A DNA stretch of 36,204 bases from Bacteroidota bacterium (GTDB taxonomy: Bacteria > Bacteroidota > Ignavibacteria > UBA10030), in the NCBI GenBank assembly GCA_041480785.1, contig JBGPAN010000002.1, forward strand, positions 1-36,204, given 5' to 3'. Of this stretch, positions 3,951 through 22,254 are shown piece by piece. The number at the start of each line of letters is the position of its first letter. Position 1 is the first letter of the stretch. The notes under the pieces were generated by a model. It did no database searches. It worked only from the letters and a program-made list of their open reading frames with translations, and had not been told where the DNA came from. Both the position numbers and the translations under genes were made by a program.

Positions 3951-4244
3951 TCGTGTGCCTTTCTCACAGTACCGACAGATTCAGACGTTCTAGTTTCGTT
4001 CTTCTGTTGTACCCATCGACCCGAACAAACCACGGATGGACTTGCTTGTGTGCGGTTGGTTCCATAATACACTGACACGTAACATCGACGCGACGGGTGT
4101 TGTGCGCTTTGACGCAACCATGATCTTTTCACCCTTGAGACCTATGCCGTGCCCGCGTCTCTCAGGTGGTCCCATCTCAACTCCGGTCAATTCAGTCATG
4201 GGATTATGGACGCAATCCAACAATCCACAAATAATCAAATCCCT

Positions 4245-6803
4245 ATGATCGGTCAGACATTCTCCCATTACAAAATTCTTCAGAAACTCGGTGAGGGGGG
4301 TATGGGCGTGGTGTATAAGGCCCAGGATACGAAGCTCCTCCGCCCCGTTGCGTTGAAGTTCCTTTCGCCTGAATTGACCCGCGACCAGGACGCCAAGAAG
4401 CGGTTCATTCGGGAAGCACGGGCTGCTTCCGGACTGGATCATCCCAACATTGCCATCGTCCATGATGTGGACGAAACACCCGACGGCCATTCGTTCATCT
4501 GTATGGCGTACTACGACGGCCAGACTCTGGCGTCAAAGCTGGCGAAGGGATCGTTTGATGTTGTTGATGCCGTGCGGGTCGCGGTTCAGATAGCGGGTGG
4601 ACTGGAGAGAGCGCACGATTCCGGCATCGTCCATCGCGACATTAAGCCGAGCAATATCATCATCACGTCGCAGGGAGAAGTGAAGATTGTTGATTTTGGT
4701 CTCGCAAAGCTCTCGGCGCATGCACGGGAAACCAAGAGCCAGATTACGGGCGGCACTGCCGCATACATGTCACCAGAGCAGATACTCGGCAGCGAGGCTG
4801 ACGCTCGCAGCGATTTGTTTTCGCTCGGTGTCGTACTCTACGAAACCGTGACTGGAAAAAGACCATTTCTCGGGGAGCACGAGGCAGCGCTTTACTATTC
4901 CATTGTCAACTCGGAGCCGATTCCGCCGTCGACAATTCGTTCAGGAATCTCACCCGAGCTCGAGAAGGTTATCCTTCATCTGCTCGAGAAGGACCCGAAG
5001 AAGCGGTACCAGAGCGCTTCAGACGTTATCATCGACCTGAAGCACTATCTCGGAGAGAAGCCGACGGCAAGGCCAATCAGGCAACTCCGAAAAGCGCTCT
5101 ACGGCAAATATCCCGTACCGGTAGTCGTGGGGGCAGTCCTACTTGTCGCGACGATCATTCTGTATGCGAGTGGAGTGCTGGAGTACTGGTTTGGGGGGAG
5201 GCCGCCGCTACCAGAACAAGTAAGTATTGCGGTACTTCCTTTCGAGATACGCGGGGCAGATTCGATCGTGACATCTCAATTTCAGGGGTTGTTTGAGACC
5301 ATTGCCATAAGGCTGACGAAGTTACATTTGGGCCGACCTAATTTCACTGTGATCGGGACAAGCACGTCAAAAGATTTCAAGAGTGCGAAAGACGCATATG
5401 AGAAAGCGGGGGCGACGGTGGCACTCAAATGCTCGTTCGACTGTGTGGCGCCCCGGGCTGAGATCAAGGTCAGCCTTGAAAACACAAGGACTCTTCGCAC
5501 TATTGATGGCGATATTCTTGAGCATGACGCAAAAGACCTGGTTGAAATCGAAAGCGACATTCTGATGTTTGTGATCGGCACCTGCCGCATCGATGCTAAA
5601 CCCGCCGACCTACGAGGGTTCGAATTCGGAGACACCAAGAACGACGAAGCCAATAAACTCTACTTGCAGGCTAGAGGTCAGTTACGCAACTATGCGAATA
5701 GGGAAGTGCTTAGAAGTGCCATTGATTTGTTCGGGCAGTCCGTCGCAATCGATGCACGATTCGCAAAAGCATATGCCGGACTCGGTGAGGCTTATTGGCG
5801 AAACTTCGGGATAACGAAGGACCCACAGTGGGTCGACAGCGCCGAGGTCGCTTGGGCTCGCGCCAACGCACTTAATGCAAAGCTCCCTGAAGTTCGACTC
5901 ACTCGTGGCATGCTCTACCGAGTAGGTGGGAAACCTGAAGCCGCCATAGAAGAGTTTCGGGCTGTGCTGTCCATAGATTCATTGAATGCGGACGCCTATC
6001 GCGAGCTGGGCGACGCATACGCAGACGCGAAGCAGCTTCTGAAAGCTGAAGAAGCTTACAAAAAAGCCATTGTGATCAGGCCGACGGACTGGACTGTTCA
6101 TAACTACCTTGCCAGGTTCTATTATAAGACGATGAGAACCGAAGAGGCCATCGAGATATGGAAGAAGGTCATAGAGCTCGCCCCCGACGTTGGCATCGCT
6201 TACAGCAATCTCGGCGTGGCGTATTACATGCGACTTCAGCGATGGCGCGACGCAATCGCCTGGTTCGAGCGAGCCCAGCAAATCGACTCAACTAACTACT
6301 TGATATACAAGAACCTGGGAGCCGCATACTACTATGATAATCTCTATGAACGATCTACTCAGGCATATGAAAGATCACTCAAAATCAATTCCAAAGACTA
6401 TGGTGTCTTGGGCGGTCTTGGCGCTGCCTACCGGTCAATGGGGAGCCAAAAGCTCGCTAATGAAGCATATGAAGAGGCGATCAAACTGGCTGAGGCGCAG
6501 CTGAATGTGAATCGTAAGGACCCCGATATAGTTTCGCAACTAGCAGGATTTTATGCCGACGTTGGACGAAAGCAAGACGCACGCGCTACAGCTCTCAAGG
6601 CTCTCACACTCGCCCCGAACGATGGAGATGTTTTGAAGCGCCTCGTTTTCATGTACGAGGCTCTTGGTGAACGACGAGAGGCATTTAAGATGTTGGCTCG
6701 AGTCATGGAACAGAAGGCTCAATGGACAGAAATCAAATATAGCCCCGAGTTGAAGAGTTTCCGCGAAGATCCGCGATACAAACAAATCACGAAAGGAGGA
6801 TGA
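4245..6803 (+). CDS. Membrane Ser/Thr protein kinase with extracytoplasmic VLPFE-type module and C-terminal TPR array
   Basis: Hanks kinase motifs are present: G-loop GEGGMGVVYKA, VALK lysine, HRDIKPSNI catalytic loop, DFG, and YMSPE. One TM helix (YPVPVVVGAVLLVATIILYASGVL). Then VSIAVLPFEIRGAD.., then repeated TPR-like A..Y..A....P.. units to the C-terminus. The start at 4245 (MIGQTFSHYKIL) is typical for this architecture. In-frame ATGs at 4206 and 4149 cannot be excluded. Confidence 0.9.
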   Translation: MIGQTFSHYKILQKLGEGGMGVVYKAQDTKLLRPVALKFLSPELTRDQDAKKRFIREARAASGLDHPNIAIVHDVDETPDGHSFICMAYYDGQTLASKLAKGSFDVVDAVRVAVQIAGGLERAHDSGIVHRDIKPSNIIITSQGEVKIVDFGLAKLSAHARETKSQITGGTAAYMSPEQILGSEADARSDLFSLGVVLYETVTGKRPFLGEHEAALYYSIVNSEPIPPSTIRSGISPELEKVILHLLEKDPKKRYQSASDVIIDLKHYLGEKPTARPIRQLRKALYGKYPVPVVVGAVLLVATIILYASGVLEYWFGGRPPLPEQVSIAVLPFEIRGADSIVTSQFQGLFETIAIRLTKLHLGRPNFTVIGTSTSKDFKSAKDAYEKAGATVALKCSFDCVAPRAEIKVSLENTRTLRTIDGDILEHDAKDLVEIESDILMFVIGTCRIDAKPADLRGFEFGDTKNDEANKLYLQARGQLRNYANREVLRSAIDLFGQSVAIDARFAKAYAGLGEAYWRNFGITKDPQWVDSAEVAWARANALNAKLPEVRLTRGMLYRVGGKPEAAIEEFRAVLSIDSLNADAYRELGDAYADAKQLLKAEEAYKKAIVIRPTDWTVHNYLARFYYKTMRTEEAIEIWKKVIELAPDVGIAYSNLGVAYYMRLQRWRDAIAWFERAQQIDSTNYLIYKNLGAAYYYDNLYERSTQAYERSLKINSKDYGVLGGLGAAYRSMGSQKLANEAYEEAIKLAEAQLNVNRKDPDIVSQLAGFYADVGRKQDARATALKALTLAPNDGDVLKRLVFMYEALGERREAFKMLARVMEQKAQWTEIKYSPELKSFREDPRYKQITKGG

Positions 6804-6944
6804 ATCGGAGAAGTCAATATCATCGGTTTAGGAAAAATCGGGATGCAATAAGCCCGAACCAACGCTCTAGCCGAGATGAAAGCAATTTCCGGCCCGGAGA
6901 TGATAATCCAATAGATAATCTGTCTACATGAAAGGAGCTCGGTT

Positions 6945-7280
6945 ATGAAAAGGCCATCACTACCCAATTTTCAGCTCTTCTCTCAGGACATTCCCATTAA
7001 GTCGAATCCTGGTGGCCACTGGAGGGTGTCAAAGTGCCATGTCCAACCAGGAGTTGTCACTTGGAGATGTGATGTCCCTGGCTCTTACATATGGATCATG
7101 TTCCCCGAACATCATAATCCTATCAAAGACGGAGGTCCTCAGGCTTCGGGCCCAAGTCCCTTGAAGGTTACGCTGGGCGAACGCAAAGGCTACTACCCTT
7201 ACTGCGTGCTTAGTCAAGACCCCGCTGGGGTGTTCCATCTTGTCGAAGGCAATTCGCCTCCGGAAATGGAGATTGGGTAG
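6945..7280 (+). CDS. Small soluble protein of unknown family, paralog A (C-terminus HLVEGNSPPEMEIG)
   Basis: 111-aa ORF with AAAGGAG 7 nt upstream of the ATG. Paralogous to 7480-7818, with a substitution pattern consistent with selection on this reading frame. No signal peptide or TM segment. Confidence 0.75.
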   Translation: MKRPSLPNFQLFSQDIPIKSNPGGHWRVSKCHVQPGVVTWRCDVPGSYIWIMFPEHHNPIKDGGPQASGPSPLKVTLGERKGYYPYCVLSQDPAGVFHLVEGNSPPEMEIG

Positions 7281-7479
7281 GGCTTGTTTGTGTGGTAGAT
7301 ACACAGTAGATTTGTTCAATATCAGGGGCAAAGGATTAATCTATGCTCTTTTACAGCTTTCTCTCCTCCGATCACACCAACGCCAGCACTGTTTTCTATG
7401 CCAGGCCCTTATGAATCATTTCACTCCTCCATCATCCAACATCCAGACGAACATCCACCACTAACAAGAAAGGTTGAAC

Positions 7480-7818
7480 ATGTCTGCCACGCAAAAGAAC
7501 CCTGCAAGCCCTCAACACGATGAAAAGATCATCATCGTAAAAGGTGGAAATGCGAACTGGTTCATCAAGCCGATCAAAGTCCATGCAAATACCAAGGTGA
7601 CTTGGCATTGCCGTTTGAATAGTATTAGTATCTGGTTCCCCAAGGACAATAATCCCCTTGCTGGTGGCAAAAATGAGGTCTATGGCAAGAATGGAAAAGC
7701 GAACGCTGTGGTAGGTTCCAAGAAGGGCAAATACTACTACTGCATACTCGTCACAGAGGATAATGGCGAGGTTCATCTCGTGGAAGCGAACTCACCCCCC
7801 GAGATGGAGATCGTGTAG
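7480..7818 (+). CDS. Small soluble protein of unknown family, paralog B (C-terminus HLVEANSPPEMEIV)
   Basis: 112 aa from the ATG at 7480, with AAAGG 6 nt upstream. The ORF track starts at the TTG at 7474. Shares the blocks VTW[RH]C, IW.FP...NP...GG, KG.YY.YC.L and HLVE.NSPPEMEI with 6945-7280. Confidence 0.75.
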   Translation: MSATQKNPASPQHDEKIIIVKGGNANWFIKPIKVHANTKVTWHCRLNSISIWFPKDNNPLAGGKNEVYGKNGKANAVVGSKKGKYYYCILVTEDNGEVHLVEANSPPEMEIV

Positions 7819-8055: not shown

Positions 8056-8664
8056 GTGAGAGAATTCAAGATCGATATTGCAGGCTCACAAGGGAAGGTT
8101 CGGGAGGATGTTGTCAGCCGTTCACAGTGCAGAGATCTCGCTGCATTCGAGCAGCTCGTTCGGAAATATCAACCCTACGCTTTCTCTCTCGCCATGAAGT
8201 TTCTTTGTGATGAAGCAGAGGCTGCTGACGTTGTCCAGGATTCGTTTCTCCGAGTCTGGAAAAACATCGATCATTATGATCCGAATCAGAAATTTTCAAC
8301 GTGGCTCTACAAAATTGTTGCCAATGTGTGCATTGACCGGTTACGCGCTCTCAAAAGAAACCGGAGCATCTTCCTCTCGCGGGAACGTGATCCTATGATG
8401 GAAGATCTCCCGGACGAGCGCGACTGGGAAACATCGCGATCCCATGAACAGTTAGCCGACATTATCAGGACGTTCTCGAGACGGCTTTCACGAACACAAC
8501 GACTTGTTTTCACATTACGTGACCTTCAGGATTTGTCTGTGAAAGAGGTTGTGGAAATAACGGGCCTTTCGATTGGAAGCGTTAAGACGAACTTGCATTA
8601 TGCACGGAAATCCATCCGGGATATTCTGGTTCGACATTATGGCGTTGTGAGGGGTGAACTATGA
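8056..8664 (+). CDS. ECF-type RNA polymerase sigma-70 family factor
   Basis: Region 2 blocks DVVQDSFLRVWKN and FSTWLYKIVANVCIDRLR. Region 4 helix-turn-helix LSVKEVVEITGLSIGSVKTNLHYARKSIR. GTG start at 8056. The exact start is uncertain and no in-frame ATG is nearby. Confidence 0.9.
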   Translation: MREFKIDIAGSQGKVREDVVSRSQCRDLAAFEQLVRKYQPYAFSLAMKFLCDEAEAADVVQDSFLRVWKNIDHYDPNQKFSTWLYKIVANVCIDRLRALKRNRSIFLSRERDPMMEDLPDERDWETSRSHEQLADIIRTFSRRLSRTQRLVFTLRDLQDLSVKEVVEITGLSIGSVKTNLHYARKSIRDILVRHYGVVRGEL

Positions 8665-9365
8665 GCTGCGAGCGATATCAACGGTTGCTTCATCTGAATC
8701 GATCAGGTGAGATCTCCAAACGCGAGGCGGATGAACTCCGCCAGCATCTCCGCTTGTGCGAAAAGTGCTCTCTCGAGCTTCAGCGGATCGCAAGAGCTGA
8801 CGGATTCATCGATCGTCTTGCTGCCTTTTCACCGACCCCCAAGAACCCGGAAAAACTCACGGCAGACATTCTGCGGCGCGTGCAGGCAGAGTCCTCTGCG
8901 CCAAAGCCATTGAACCCACTGGACCGTTTTCTTGATTTCTTTCTGCTTCCGTCCGTGCGGTACGCAACCGTAACGATTGTTCTCTTGGTGACCATGACAT
9001 TCATGATTCAACTGCTGGTGATGATGAACAACATCTCCGATCTTGAACAGCGCATGGCATCCCCTGCCCGACATGGCGCTGCCGAGGCGACCTATAGGAT
9101 GCAGTCAAAGACGCTCCAGGAGGTCGCAATATCAGAACGGGGCAAGTCCCTCAAGGAAAATGTTTCCCTCACTGTGACCAACGACCGTATTGATGTCTCG
9201 GCGAAGGAGGTGGATACATTCCTGTCTGACTATGACCTGAGAAACCTTTCAGCAACGCTCGGAGCATCCGCCCTGGGTATTGACCAGAAGACGCTTGAGA
9301 AAATTGTCAACGAAGTTAAGGCCACAGCTGAACGATCGTTCCGTCTTGACGGTAAAGGAGCTTAA
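8661..9365 (+). CDS. Anti-sigma factor, zinc-finger (ZAS / zf-HC2) type, single-pass membrane protein
   Basis: The ATG overlaps the sigma stop (ATGA at 8661-8664). N-terminal C3-x25-H29-x3-C-x2-C (MSCERY...RQHLRLCEKC). One TM helix (YATVTIVLLVTMTFMIQLLVMM) followed by an extracytoplasmic tail of about 110 aa. Confidence 0.8.
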   Translation: MSCERYQRLLHLNRSGEISKREADELRQHLRLCEKCSLELQRIARADGFIDRLAAFSPTPKNPEKLTADILRRVQAESSAPKPLNPLDRFLDFFLLPSVRYATVTIVLLVTMTFMIQLLVMMNNISDLEQRMASPARHGAAEATYRMQSKTLQEVAISERGKSLKENVSLTVTNDRIDVSAKEVDTFLSDYDLRNLSATLGASALGIDQKTLEKIVNEVKATAERSFRLDGKGA

Positions 9366-9368
9366 CCT

Positions 9369-10427
9369 ATGCGACGCATCAGCGTTTCATCGAGTCTCAC
9401 TCTGTGTTTCCTTAGCACCCTGTTGCTGAGCGGATGCCTCGACATCACTTCGACCAGCAAGGTGAACAGCAATGGGAGTATCGTTCGTACGATTGCATTC
9501 ACGGGCGACTCCACCGACGTTTATGCGGGGAAGTTCCCTCTCCGGCTCGATTCATCGTGGAGCAAAAACATTACAAAGTCAAAGGAGAAGGATAGAAACT
9601 ACACATTGACAGCCAGCAGGACGTTTCGAGATGTTGAAGAGATGAACGGGGTCCTTGGAGGAACATTCAGCTGGACACTTCAATACCGCTTTGAATTTGA
9701 CAAGTCCTTCCAGTGGTTCTTCACTATCTACCGATATCGGGAGACGAACCTCCCATTTGCGCAATACACGTCTATTCCGCTGACGGAGTTTCTTTCAAGC
9801 CAGGAGATTGAGTTGGTCCTCCAGGACACGCTTGATGACCCGACGAGACACCTTATGTCGCGGGGAGACAGTCTTGCAATGGAGAGCCTCATCCCTCGTT
9901 TGCAAGAGTGGGAGTGGCGGAACCGATTTGAGCCCGTCTTCTCGGCGTTCCTTGACGGAGTGAAAACGCTCAACAATCCCTCGCTGACAACCGGCATGGT
10001 AGAGCCGCTGAAGGATTCGCTCTACGGGAAGTCGGCGAAAGCTATTGATAAGGGAAAGATTGATTCGCTTCGCATCATCTTCAAGGCCGTGATGAGGAAC
10101 CCGCTTGTTGACAAGGCCTGGCAGGCGAATGCGCCTGCGATTGAAGAGGTAAAACGCAGGTTTGCGTTCGAGCATCAGACCAATTCCCATAAATATTTCA
10201 CGAACGTTGTCATGCCGGGGTTGATCACGGGATCGAACGCGGGCAAGATAGAAGGGAATATGGCAACCTGGCAGGATTTCAGAGAGCGTGTCCATCATCT
10301 CGAATATACGATGTGGGTAGAGTCGCGGCAGGTGAACTGGTGGGCGGTGATCATTGCCCTGGCGGTGGTTGTATCGTTGATGACGATGTTGATTCTCTCC
10401 GTCCTGCGCAGGAGACATCAGGTGTAA
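9369..10427 (+). CDS. Lipoprotein with additional C-terminal TM helix, function unknown
   Basis: Starts 3 nt after the anti-sigma stop. Lipobox LLLSG|C. C-terminal WWAVIIALAVVVSLMTMLILSVL followed by RRRHQV. No catalytic motif recognised. Confidence 0.7.
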   Translation: MRRISVSSSLTLCFLSTLLLSGCLDITSTSKVNSNGSIVRTIAFTGDSTDVYAGKFPLRLDSSWSKNITKSKEKDRNYTLTASRTFRDVEEMNGVLGGTFSWTLQYRFEFDKSFQWFFTIYRYRETNLPFAQYTSIPLTEFLSSQEIELVLQDTLDDPTRHLMSRGDSLAMESLIPRLQEWEWRNRFEPVFSAFLDGVKTLNNPSLTTGMVEPLKDSLYGKSAKAIDKGKIDSLRIIFKAVMRNPLVDKAWQANAPAIEEVKRRFAFEHQTNSHKYFTNVVMPGLITGSNAGKIEGNMATWQDFRERVHHLEYTMWVESRQVNWWAVIIALAVVVSLMTMLILSVLRRRHQV

Positions 10428-10466: not shown

Positions 10467-11156
10467 ATGAACGATCTTATCACCCGATTTCGATGCAAAG
10501 GCCTGGGTTTTTGGTGCGCGGTGATCCTTTTCGCCGTGGCAGTCGCCCTCTCTTTGTGCGGCGTTACACAGCCTGTGCGGATCATCGACCGGGGAACAAC
10601 ACAGGCGGCCGTGTCCCTCGGCGGCCCCCTCATCCCGTTCGGAGGCATGACTGTTCCGACTCCATATCTGAACCTCGGTCTCATTCACGGCTACAAAGAG
10701 AACCTCACGCTCACCGGCAACGTCCACGCCACGATGGCCGTGTTCAAGAATGCAGCGTTTGACGTCGGCGCAGCGACGCGGCTTGCGCATGAAAGCAACG
10801 GTTGGCCCGAGTTGACAGCCAAAGGTCAACTTTATCTCTTCTCCGATCTGGAAAGACTGGACGCCGTGCGCGTCTTTCCCATGGTGAACGTCAACGCAAG
10901 TTATCTTCTGGGGCATTCGACGTTGCTCTATGCGGGCGCCGAACAGTTGATCCAATTCAACAAGCCGCAGTACTTCTTCACTCCATTTGCGGGGACACAG
11001 CTGAGTCTTTCCAACCGCTCAGCACTGCAGATCGAACTCAAATGGATGGCAGCAAACGCTAACGCTGCACACGGCATCTTCCGGGGAACAGGCTCCATTG
11101 GCGACCACGGTGACATTGGACTCTTTTTCGGATATACATACGGACTCTCCCGATGA
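10467..11156 (+). CDS. Envelope protein of unknown function, possibly a small beta-barrel
   Basis: 229-aa ORF with N-terminal hydrophobic segment FWCAVILFAVAVALSL. The rest shows an alternating hydrophobic/polar pattern and an aromatic-rich C-terminus (GLFFGYTYGLSR). The stop overlaps the next gene's ATG (ATGA at 11153-11156). Confidence 0.6.
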   Translation: MNDLITRFRCKGLGFWCAVILFAVAVALSLCGVTQPVRIIDRGTTQAAVSLGGPLIPFGGMTVPTPYLNLGLIHGYKENLTLTGNVHATMAVFKNAAFDVGAATRLAHESNGWPELTAKGQLYLFSDLERLDAVRVFPMVNVNASYLLGHSTLLYAGAEQLIQFNKPQYFFTPFAGTQLSLSNRSALQIELKWMAANANAAHGIFRGTGSIGDHGDIGLFFGYTYGLSR

Positions 11157-20862: not shown

Positions 20863-22254
20863 GTGAGATTTCTCAAGCGCTCGTCAGTTGCACCATTGCT
20901 CGTATCACTGTTGCTTTTCTTCCCGCCCTTTTCCCTCGCCCAAAAGAAAACGACCGAGGTGAAGAGCTCTGAGCCCGACGTGACACGGTTGAGCCGTGGA
21001 CTTGCATATTCCATTCAGCGTTTTGCAGACAGCACTCTGCAGACCAAACGGCACTATTCGGATTCGCTCGTAGCTGCAGTGGCATTCATGACAAAGAATG
21101 CGACAACCCAAATTGATCTGCTGGCAGACTCCCTGATCACATCGGCTCATGATTCCCTCGACACTCCTCGGAAAGACACTCTTCGGTTCGTAACAAAGTT
21201 TCTGCAACAACAGCTTCTTGCATTCGGGGACACCGCGAAACAGGCTGTCAGCGGTCCCATTTCCAATTTTTTCGGTGAGTTCACGAAGGGTAAGAACACA
21301 TACTCCGTGTGCGACAGCTGTGAAAGCGGTTCTGATTTCGATGATCGTTTCGAACAATTCCACGCGTTTGTTGACAGCCTCCACGACGTATTCAACGATA
21401 CAACGGCTGCACTGATGGACGATCGCAAAGATGCTTTTCAGGACAGGTACGATACTATCCACGATTCTCTGGCCGATCTCCGGGACAACCTGATCGAAAA
21501 CCGTTTGAATGAAATCGACTATCAGCGCTACGTCGCAACTCGTCTCACCGTTTCAGCAGGCTATTCGAGTCGCACTACGTACCGCGGCCGCGACAATGGA
21601 TTACCCCAGCAAATGATCAGCCCTTCGCTGGCGTTTCATCATAAGTCAGGGTTTGGCATCGAGGTATCGACGTATTGGCTTGATCAAACACCGAAGCGAT
21701 GGGACGATGTAGCTGCTTCAGTAAGCTACGAATTCACTGTGGGGAGCCTCCTCGGTGGAGAGCTTTTCTATAGTCACTTCTGGTTCAGCGACAGCAGCCG
21801 ATCGGCAAAATCGGTTTTCAAGAATGATTTCGGTGCCAGCCTTTCGCTGAACTGGCCAGTTCTCACGTTTTCCGTCGACGGAGATCTTGCGACCGGCGAT
21901 GCTTCTGAATTCACCCTGGCTGTTTCTGCGTCTCACGAATTCGAAATCCCGCTGACACTCTACAACACCATCTCTTTCGCACCTGCCTTGACCGCAATTA
22001 TTGGTGAGCAGAATAGCACGTTGACGACGCTACGGAAGGGACCCAAAGGGAAAAAAATCGTCGGTGTCCAAACACAAACCAGCAACACATTTGGTGTCCT
22101 TGATTATGAAGCGTCTCTCCCCGTCACCATCGTCCTGGGGCAGTTCACGCTTTCTCCTTCCGTGATCTACATCGTGCCATTGAATGTCGTTGATCAGAGT
22201 ACAACAAAGTCATTTGTCGACTTCGAAATAGGAGTTAGTTTAGCATTTCATTGA
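20863..22254 (+). CDS. Secreted protein of unknown function: Asp-rich helical N-domain plus beta-barrel-like C-domain (putative outer-membrane protein)
   Basis: GTG start. Signal peptide RFLKRSSVAPLLVSLLLFFPPFSLAQ. The C-terminal ~230 aa show alternating amphipathic strands and end in ..FEIGVSLAFH. Confidence 0.6.
   Translation: MRFLKRSSVAPLLVSLLLFFPPFSLAQKKTTEVKSSEPDVTRLSRGLAYSIQRFADSTLQTKRHYSDSLVAAVAFMTKNATTQIDLLADSLITSAHDSLDTPRKDTLRFVTKFLQQQLLAFGDTAKQAVSGPISNFFGEFTKGKNTYSVCDSCESGSDFDDRFEQFHAFVDSLHDVFNDTTAALMDDRKDAFQDRYDTIHDSLADLRDNLIENRLNEIDYQRYVATRLTVSAGYSSRTTYRGRDNGLPQQMISPSLAFHHKSGFGIEVSTYWLDQTPKRWDDVAASVSYEFTVGSLLGGELFYSHFWFSDSSRSAKSVFKNDFGASLSLNWPVLTFSVDGDLATGDASEFTLAVSASHEFEIPLTLYNTISFAPALTAIIGEQNSTLTTLRKGPKGKKIVGVQTQTSNTFGVLDYEASLPVTIVLGQFTLSPSVIYIVPLNVVDQSTTKSFVDFEIGVSLAFH

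Follow-up and report, generated by a model that had tools for sequence, protein, structure and literature searches.

An uncatalogued family of small proteins encoded directly behind a single-pass Hanks-type kinase in Ignavibacteriales-type and other bacterial genomes

Two adjacent genes, here called A and B, in a 36,204-nucleotide stretch of a Bacteroidota bacterium genome (assembly GCA_041480785.1, contig JBGPAN010000002.1, positions 1 to 36,204; this whole stretch is referred to as the window) encode diverged paralogs that belong to an uncatalogued protein family of ~100 clusters, mostly of ~100–130 amino acids (aa), and they follow a gene for a Hanks-type Ser/Thr kinase with an array of tetratricopeptide repeats (TPR). 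The adjacency of family genes to one ortholog of this kinase is conserved across unrelated genome contexts, from which we infer, with confidence that falls a little short of even, an interaction or phosphorylation in which the small protein would work with the cytoplasmic catalytic domain of the kinase as a substrate, adaptor, or regulator. The genes and sites concerned are the following, with related loci given L numbers throughout.

4149..6803, plus strand: single-pass Hanks-type Ser/Thr kinase (Pfam Pkinase at 2.9e-51, and many TPR models)
6930..6937, plus strand: Shine-Dalgarno-like site of open reading frame (ORF) A, GAAAGGAG, 7 nucleotides (nt) 5' of the ATG, read from the sequence
6945..7280, plus strand: ORF A, 111 aa, the kinase-proximal family member, which fills the position called the A slot
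7251..7274, plus strand: codons for NSPPEMEI in A (aat tcg cct ccg gaa atg gag att)
7281..7479, plus strand: A–B intergenic region and B leader, from alignments of 7 and 13 loci
7466..7473, plus strand: Shine-Dalgarno-like site of ORF B, AAGAAAGG, read from the sequence
7480..7818, plus strand: ORF B, 112 aa counted from the ATG, the conserved B-type member
7789..7812, plus strand: codons for NSPPEMEI in B (aac tca ccc ccc gag atg gag atc)

An earlier note on this DNA, made from the sequence alone, had described A and B as diverged paralogs, and this is what they are: BLASTP aligns the two proteins at 36% identity over 99 aa (E value 2e-19), far above chance, and all of the ordered sequence blocks that had been listed, including the C-terminal HLVE[GA]NSPPEMEI[GV]-stop, are found in both. 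Each ORF has its own Shine-Dalgarno-like site, as the note had said, an upstream extension of either ORF is blocked by a stop, and a TTG in frame with ORF B lies at 7474. A recount of the NSPPEMEI codons gave the same figure as before, with third-base differences between A and B in 6 of the 7 degenerate codons, and these synonymous differences rule out recent gene conversion between the two genes. Analysis of hydropathy agrees with the earlier claim that neither protein has a signal peptide or transmembrane segment, since no hydrophobic segment occurs in either (maximum 19-aa Kyte-Doolittle means of 0.64 in A and 0.54 in B). A 26-nt stretch at 6814–6839, 3' of the kinase stop and 5' of A, is 73% identical to 7316–7341 in the B leader, a likeness that may be the relic of a duplication taking in the upstream region or may be due to chance.

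The earlier note could not place the family, and A and B have no match in Pfam or NCBIfam (even at an E value of 10), PADLOC, PHROGs, or PDB sequences (single-sequence or profile search); nor did searches of the literature turn up any account of the family. The collections searched comprised 5.8 billion proteins through a word index and 1.84 billion representatives through an exhaustive hidden Markov model (HMM) search. In the larger collection, B as the query returned 16 relatives, every one of 112 aa, and A in the word-indexed search returned only itself, while a profile to which the A-like proteins of related loci had been added found 42 clusters. The exhaustive HMM search gave 114 proteins at an E value ≤1e-3, ~95 of which are single-domain proteins of 90–165 aa; the remaining large matches are PKD or fn3 repeat proteins with weak additive similarity, which was judged generic, and they were rejected as family members. 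ORF A matches two family profiles at E values of 4.9e-27 and 1.7e-24. None of the 95 members has a meaningful match to a Pfam model, and the source annotation is always "hypothetical protein". All named source genomes are metagenome-assembled genomes (MAGs), assigned to Ignavibacteriales, Ignavibacteriae, "Bacteroidetes", one Candidatus Eisenbacteria, and one Balneolaceae. A single pattern match on a viral contig was a chance match with no ORF there, and a viral link is rejected, as a fold search against BFVD also gave generic beta-sandwiches only.

The signature of the family is a C-terminal G-N-[S/T]-[P/S]-P-x-[M/I]-[I/V]-[I/V] followed by 1–3 residues, which is present in 91 of the 95 members. 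At the hydroxyl position of the motif, 92% of these members have Ser and 8% have Thr, and Pro stands two residues further on in all cases (91/91), with variation in both the last residue of the tail and the residue preceding the Ser/Thr (N, D, G, K, H, or S). Other near-invariant positions, in B numbering, are W42, F53-P54, and Y87. The two Cys and one His that the earlier note had described as conserved are indeed common to A and B, but they are not conserved in the wider family. B orthologs, always of 112 aa and 60–90% identical to each other, belong to the B-type proteins, which retain C44, H99, M109, and usually C88 (Ser or Gly in three B clusters), and the L003-type A proteins are without Cys and His.

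Homologs of A and B are not scattered over unrelated contexts; they keep one context, which in nearly all loci is directly behind the kinase. Within a synteny block shared by Ignavibacteriales genomes, in which the cytochrome c and M28 peptidase are 71–93% identical to those of the window, the slot behind the kinase always holds family genes, either one or two of them and drawn from at least eight subfamilies, and members begin 23–150 nt 3' of the kinase gene. B can be alone in the slot (e.g., L001), and other loci have no B (L021, L051, L060, L065, and L076). The kinase ortholog immediately precedes the family genes, in the same orientation, in the window, L001–L004, L013, L021, L025, L027, L036, L043, L045, L048, L051, L060, L065, and L076. 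Distant members, in unrelated neighbourhoods, are all single-copy and directly behind an orthologous kinase, so that homologs do not always occur in tandem, a point that the earlier note had wanted checked, and tandem pairs are lineage-specific. Genome backgrounds in which the small gene is found behind the kinase number at least six that are unrelated, including Candidatus Eisenbacteria, and the kinases of the distant loci L078 and L080–L083 have 33–45% full-length identity to that of the window and one transmembrane helix each. The distances at these and two further loci are as follows.

L078: gap to kinase 23 nt; neighbour an Exo_endo_phos gene
L080: gap to kinase 47 nt; neighbours STAS and a sigma-54 activator
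L081 (Candidatus Eisenbacteria): gap to kinase 37 nt; GAF-SpoIIE phosphatase next downstream
L082: gap to kinase 45 nt; STAS and GAF-SpoIIE upstream
L083: gap to kinase 91 nt; then a GAF hybrid histidine kinase
L043: gap to kinase 447 nt; then Amidase_3
L025: gap to kinase 151 nt

Signalling genes near the kinase and small gene at L080–L083 thus comprise GAF-SpoIIE (PP2C), STAS, a GAF hybrid histidine kinase, and a sigma-54 activator. Similar company is present at L001 (689–2785) and L009 (902–6133), and a 1743-aa Pkinase-AAA_16-GAF-SpoIIE protein is encoded nearby in L009. The kinase ORF is split in L001/L002 (L001 5132–7691) and L003 (4766–7342), and the A-slot gene of L008 (7202–7793) is apparently split into a part of 121 aa and a 60-aa piece with the motif; these split ORFs are either pseudogenes or frameshift errors of assembly.

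The kinase of the window has an intact catalytic domain at aa 41–288, with VALK, HRD, and DFG motifs in the translation, a single hydrophobic segment at aa 319–337 that marks a transmembrane helix at about aa 319–341, and an ectodomain TPR array at aa ~570–860 (domains from Pfam). Its orthologs begin at M33 (nt 4245), and PADLOC matched it solely via the generic kinase domain. Because the transmembrane helix separates the TPR array from the catalytic domain, the array lies across the membrane from A and B, and since neither A nor B carries a signal peptide or transmembrane segment, the catalytic domain is the only part of the kinase in their compartment. In the proposed arrangement, the kinase with its periplasmic TPR sensor and the small cytoplasmic protein would form a conserved gene module, with the kinase gene first and the small gene usually 23–90 nt after it on the same strand, and this short gap makes it probable that both are co-transcribed. 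The small soluble protein would act on the cytoplasmic catalytic side of the kinase as substrate, adaptor, or regulator, with the G-N-[S/T]-x-P loop before its last strand as the best candidate for a phospho-acceptor or contact site, and the PP2C (SpoIIE) and STAS genes that recur in distant loci would fit the setting of a Ser/Thr phospho-switch. A bolder form of this proposal, which is rather doubtful, is that the small protein is the dedicated phospho-acceptor or output subunit of the TPR-sensor kinase, so that the two would make up a compact Ser/Thr unit resembling a two-component system across the sampled phyla (Ignavibacteriales-type MAGs, Candidatus Eisenbacteria, and a Balneolaceae MAG), with the invariant [S/T]-x-P loop as the switch and with ectodomain and proximal output gene swapped as cassettes in Ignavibacteriales, where recombination between strains would give each its own combination of input and output.

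An AlphaFold2 model of B, built on an alignment of 42 sequences, is all-beta with 11 strands (mean predicted local distance difference test score, pLDDT, 86.8; predicted template modelling score 0.78), and the fold is confidently predicted to be a Greek-key all-beta sandwich, loosely similar to cupredoxins and Ig-like domains. The C-terminal motif, which the earlier note had regarded as a tail, is predicted not to be a free peptide, as residues 108–111 form the last beta-strand of the fold (pLDDT block means of 86 and 95 over residues 101–112). Foldseek comparison with the PDB placed pseudoazurin, amicyanin, plastocyanin, and laccase domains at the top ranks (E values 1.8e-4 to 7e-3, probability ~1.0), with template modelling scores of merely 0.39–0.49 and root-mean-square deviations of 6–8 Å for the cupredoxin matches; the highest template modelling score in the PDB, 0.60/0.56 over 128 alignment columns at 12% sequence identity, belongs to SO1698 (DUF1888, PDB 3njh). 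The model and its structural matches thus agree with the earlier description of a loosely cupredoxin-like sandwich without the spacing of a type-1 copper site. The candidate ligands in B are spaced C88-x10-H99-x9-M109, a C-x(2-4)-H-x(2-4)-M loop is lacking, and Cys and His are absent from many family members. A type-1 copper site in the family is unlikely because the candidate ligand residues vary across it, and for A and B such a site is rejected on this variation, on the wrong spacing, and on the lack of an export signal.

That selection maintains the motif at the protein level, as the earlier note had argued from the octapeptide codons, is borne out across orthologs. Among 13 distinct B orthologs, the median ratio of nonsynonymous to synonymous substitution rates (dN/dS) is 0.29, in keeping with purifying selection, and the tail codons have a proportion of nonsynonymous differences (pN) of 0.08 against a proportion of synonymous differences (pS) of 0.46. 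These orthologs share an invariant amino acid at 37 degenerate codons, and 34 of these codons vary synonymously, which means that selection acts on the B protein. In comparison with its flanking genes, B has a lower pS and a 2–4-fold higher pN in essentially all of 28 locus pairs; for example, pS between the window and L003 is 0.21 in B and 0.69–0.75 in the flanks. The codon usage of B is unbiased (effective number of codons 61), so that codon bias was rejected as the source of the low pS, and inter-lineage recombination or a constraint at the nucleotide level is possible.

Variation is distributed unevenly over the kinase and the slot behind it. Between loci of the Ignavibacteriales block, the catalytic domain of the kinase is 70–94% identical, as are the flanks, whereas the ectodomain (window 5229–6803) is only 20–50% identical except in the closest relatives. 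Against L001, L003, L008, L021, L027, L051, L060, and L076, the catalytic domain has 70–92% identity and the ectodomain 20–50%, with ~20–27% over aa 361–480. The A-slot proteins are only 25–45% identical even in close genomes. Similarity detected by blastn ends near 5065–5197 or at the kinase stop codon and mostly resumes at 7236–7250, the first codons of the conserved tail of A (seen in L004, L005, L008, and L009), the exceptions being L001, where it resumes at 7283, and L003 and L027, where it resumes further downstream. L004 is close to the window in its kinase (82% identical), B (85%), and cytochrome c (88%), but its A-slot gene (4842–5282) is of a different subfamily, with 41% identity and no detectable DNA similarity to 6812–7235. 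The sensor part of the kinase looks like the product of cassette replacement by recombination, and from these sequence comparisons A of the window would be a fast-changing proximal copy swapped by recombination and B a stable distal copy with its own conserved leader. A diversity-generating retroelement or other repeat-driven variation was rejected, as no template or variable repeats were found.

In the leader of B, the last ~30 nt (ACATCCACCAC..AAGAAAGGTTGAAC, 7451–7479) are near-invariant in 13 loci. Further upstream, TAGATTTG at 7307–7314, shared by 8 loci, agrees with TAnnTTTG, the -7 promoter motif of Bacteroidetes, a motif that is not enriched in the window. A structured RNA or riboswitch in the leader was rejected, since it has no Rfam match and its weak consensus fold shows no covariation, and a search of the surroundings of A and B for terminators and sigma-70 promoters gave nothing above the expectation from shuffled sequence.

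Several observations weigh against a joint function of kinase and small protein. The kinase is missing from the slot in L009/L016, where A and B follow cytochrome c, and in the P0007 contig; in L014 the family gene follows a PrsW protease and has no adjacent kinase; and an exported outlier follows an amino oxidase with no kinase adjoining. With 200 nt between it and A, and with a conserved leader of its own that includes a possible promoter motif, B may be regulated separately. The A subtype does not track the kinase subtype, as L004 and L048 combine a window-like kinase with another A, and the conservation of S/T-x-P may reflect no more than a structural turn. Export signals occur in four marginal members of the 95 (P0127, P0129/P0161, P0142, and P0141), and a cytoplasmic kinase could not phosphorylate a member located in the periplasm. 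These points, apart from the structural turn, also favour the main rival explanation, in which the family consists of small binding or stress proteins that share a transcript or neighbourhood with the kinase but have no direct physical or regulatory link to it. This explanation is unlikely, as the adjacency to the same kinase persists across phyla in at least six otherwise unrelated neighbourhoods with gaps of 23–91 nt, and gene order seldom survives such divergence without a functional link.

The association of the small protein with the catalytic domain of the kinase also has to be weighed against readings that give A and B other partners or no existence at all. An invariant motif at the extreme C-terminus, next to a gene that encodes a TPR array, would suit a docking peptide of the SPPxMxI type comparable to the EEVD tails of Hsp70/Hsp90 that bind TPR co-chaperones, but this is very unlikely and was rejected on membrane topology and the predicted strand: a high-confidence prediction makes the tail the last strand of the domain, the final residue of the tail is variable, and the TPR array is periplasmic, beyond the transmembrane helix from the ATP-using domain, while A and B lack an export signal. 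A metal-binding (Cu or Zn) protein of cupredoxin type, with a role in metal handling or electron transfer in which the di-haem cytochrome c, encoded divergently, might be its partner, would accord with the top Foldseek matches, with the residues kept in B-type proteins, and with the conserved place of the cytochrome c gene in the Ignavibacteriales block. It is nevertheless highly improbable, since the copper-ligand loop is lacking, Cys and His are missing from many members including all L003-type A proteins, Pfam cupredoxin models find no match even at an E value of 10, the template modelling scores with cupredoxins stay below 0.5, blue copper proteins and cytochrome c reside in the periplasm whereas a signal peptide is missing from A and B, and the cytochrome gene is absent from distant loci. 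It is almost certainly not the case that A and B are not genes or that an antisense ORF of 114 codons (7432–7776, minus strand) is the real gene, even though the in-register frame is open for 99–113 codons in 11 of 14 B orthologs and the pS of B is unusually low and its pN unusually high relative to the flanks. Synonymous-codon shuffles of B under the codon usage of the window give an equal or longer open run in 38% of cases (P = 0.38), plus-strand divergence by codon position follows the order 3 > 1 > 2, and the plus-strand protein has distant homologs in ~100 clusters and a confidently predicted fold; the antisense ORF was rejected, as it stays open because B contains few Leu and Ser codons.

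Among known systems, the FHA-domain proteins of actinobacterial pknB/pstP loci (GarA/OdhI and FhaA) are partners of Hanks kinases, and like them the family studied here is predicted to be a cytoplasmic ~100-aa beta-sandwich of about 11 strands, with its gene beside that of a membrane Hanks kinase. The FHA loci sometimes include a PP2C phosphatase, to which the GAF-SpoIIE phosphatase directly downstream in L081 would correspond. The family differs in having no Pfam FHA match, no FHA structure among the top 50 Foldseek matches, and none of the G-R, S-x-x-H, and N-G signature residues, the near-invariant set being limited to W, F-P, Y, S, and P, and it has its own C-terminal signature. The substrates of STAS partner-switching systems (SpoIIAA/RsbV type) offer a proposed likeness in that a small single domain with one conserved Ser/Thr would be phosphorylated by a neighbouring kinase and reset by SpoIIE/PP2C, and STAS and GAF-SpoIIE genes are present in distant loci of the family; however, STAS domains are alpha/beta whereas the family is predicted to be all-beta, and the kinase here is Hanks-type instead of a GHKL anti-sigma kinase. 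Cupredoxins provide the best structural matches and share a "G-x-Y-x-Y-C" strand followed by a C-terminal M/I-rich strand, but apart from the low scores, unconserved ligands, and missing signal peptide and profile match described above, the family has an extra hairpin between the Cys position and the last strand. SO1698/DUF1888, a self-cleaving small beta protein of Shewanella, is similar in size and has the top score, but the identity is low, there is no Pfam match, and the residue before the Ser/Thr varies, so that the family has no conserved Asp-Pro or Asn cleavage site. Repeats of the PKD, fn3, or Ig-like kind show weak additive profile matches and the common pattern "G-x-Y-x-Y-x-I-x-V-x-D-x-x-G", but they are extracellular repeats, and none of the 95 family members matches a Pfam PKD or fn3 model. 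By their defining tests, the family fits none of the FHA, cupredoxin, SO1698/DUF1888, and EEVD-like TPR-docking classes; its closest functional analogy would be an FHA partner of the actinobacterial Hanks kinases or a STAS-type switch protein, and its closest structures cupredoxins and SO1698.

The wider window reads, in order, penicillin amidase, a 145-aa membrane protein, the di-haem cytochrome c (minus strand), the kinase, A, and B, followed by an extracytoplasmic function (ECF) sigma factor, a zf-HC2 anti-sigma factor, a 352-aa protein, and a 229-aa protein, and then by an alpha/beta hydrolase, a PA/M28/TFR peptidase, and housekeeping-type hydrolases. The regulatory pair downstream of B is as follows.

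8056..8664, plus strand: ECF sigma factor (Pfam)
8661..9365, plus strand: zf-HC2 anti-sigma factor (Pfam)

The earlier note had emphasised the position of A and B between the kinase and this pair, of which the kinase is the conserved neighbour and the pair a local insertion. The trio of ECF sigma factor, anti-sigma factor, and 352-aa protein (8056–10427) is present only in the window, L004, L008, L048, L063, and the P0007 contig, and it is absent from L001, L003, L005, L009, L021, L051, L060, and L076. Because the pair is found in only a subset of the syntenic loci, it is not part of the conserved module, and a functional link of A and B to it was rejected. ORFs without a Pfam match elsewhere in the window are 2267–2704 (the 145-aa protein, with multiple transmembrane segments and conserved beside penicillin amidase), 9369–10427 (352 aa), 10467–11156 (229 aa), and 20863–22254 (463 aa).

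A dedicated partner is known for few bacterial Hanks-type kinases, and their substrates are usually found singly by phosphoproteomics. A kinase with an operon-encoded small partner is a known kind of arrangement, and what is new here is the uncatalogued family of the putative partner, for which a role is proposed; this is a moderate finding, of a new small family and not of a new kind of system. The clear signature of the family makes it a new domain family suitable for protein-family databases. Local hypervariability in the ectodomain and the proximal small gene suggests diversifying or recombination-driven change in the module, something not usual in housekeeping signalling. In lineages that are poorly studied and mostly uncultured, the presence of a putative partner beside one sensor kinase across phyla provides a directly testable kinase-partner pair.

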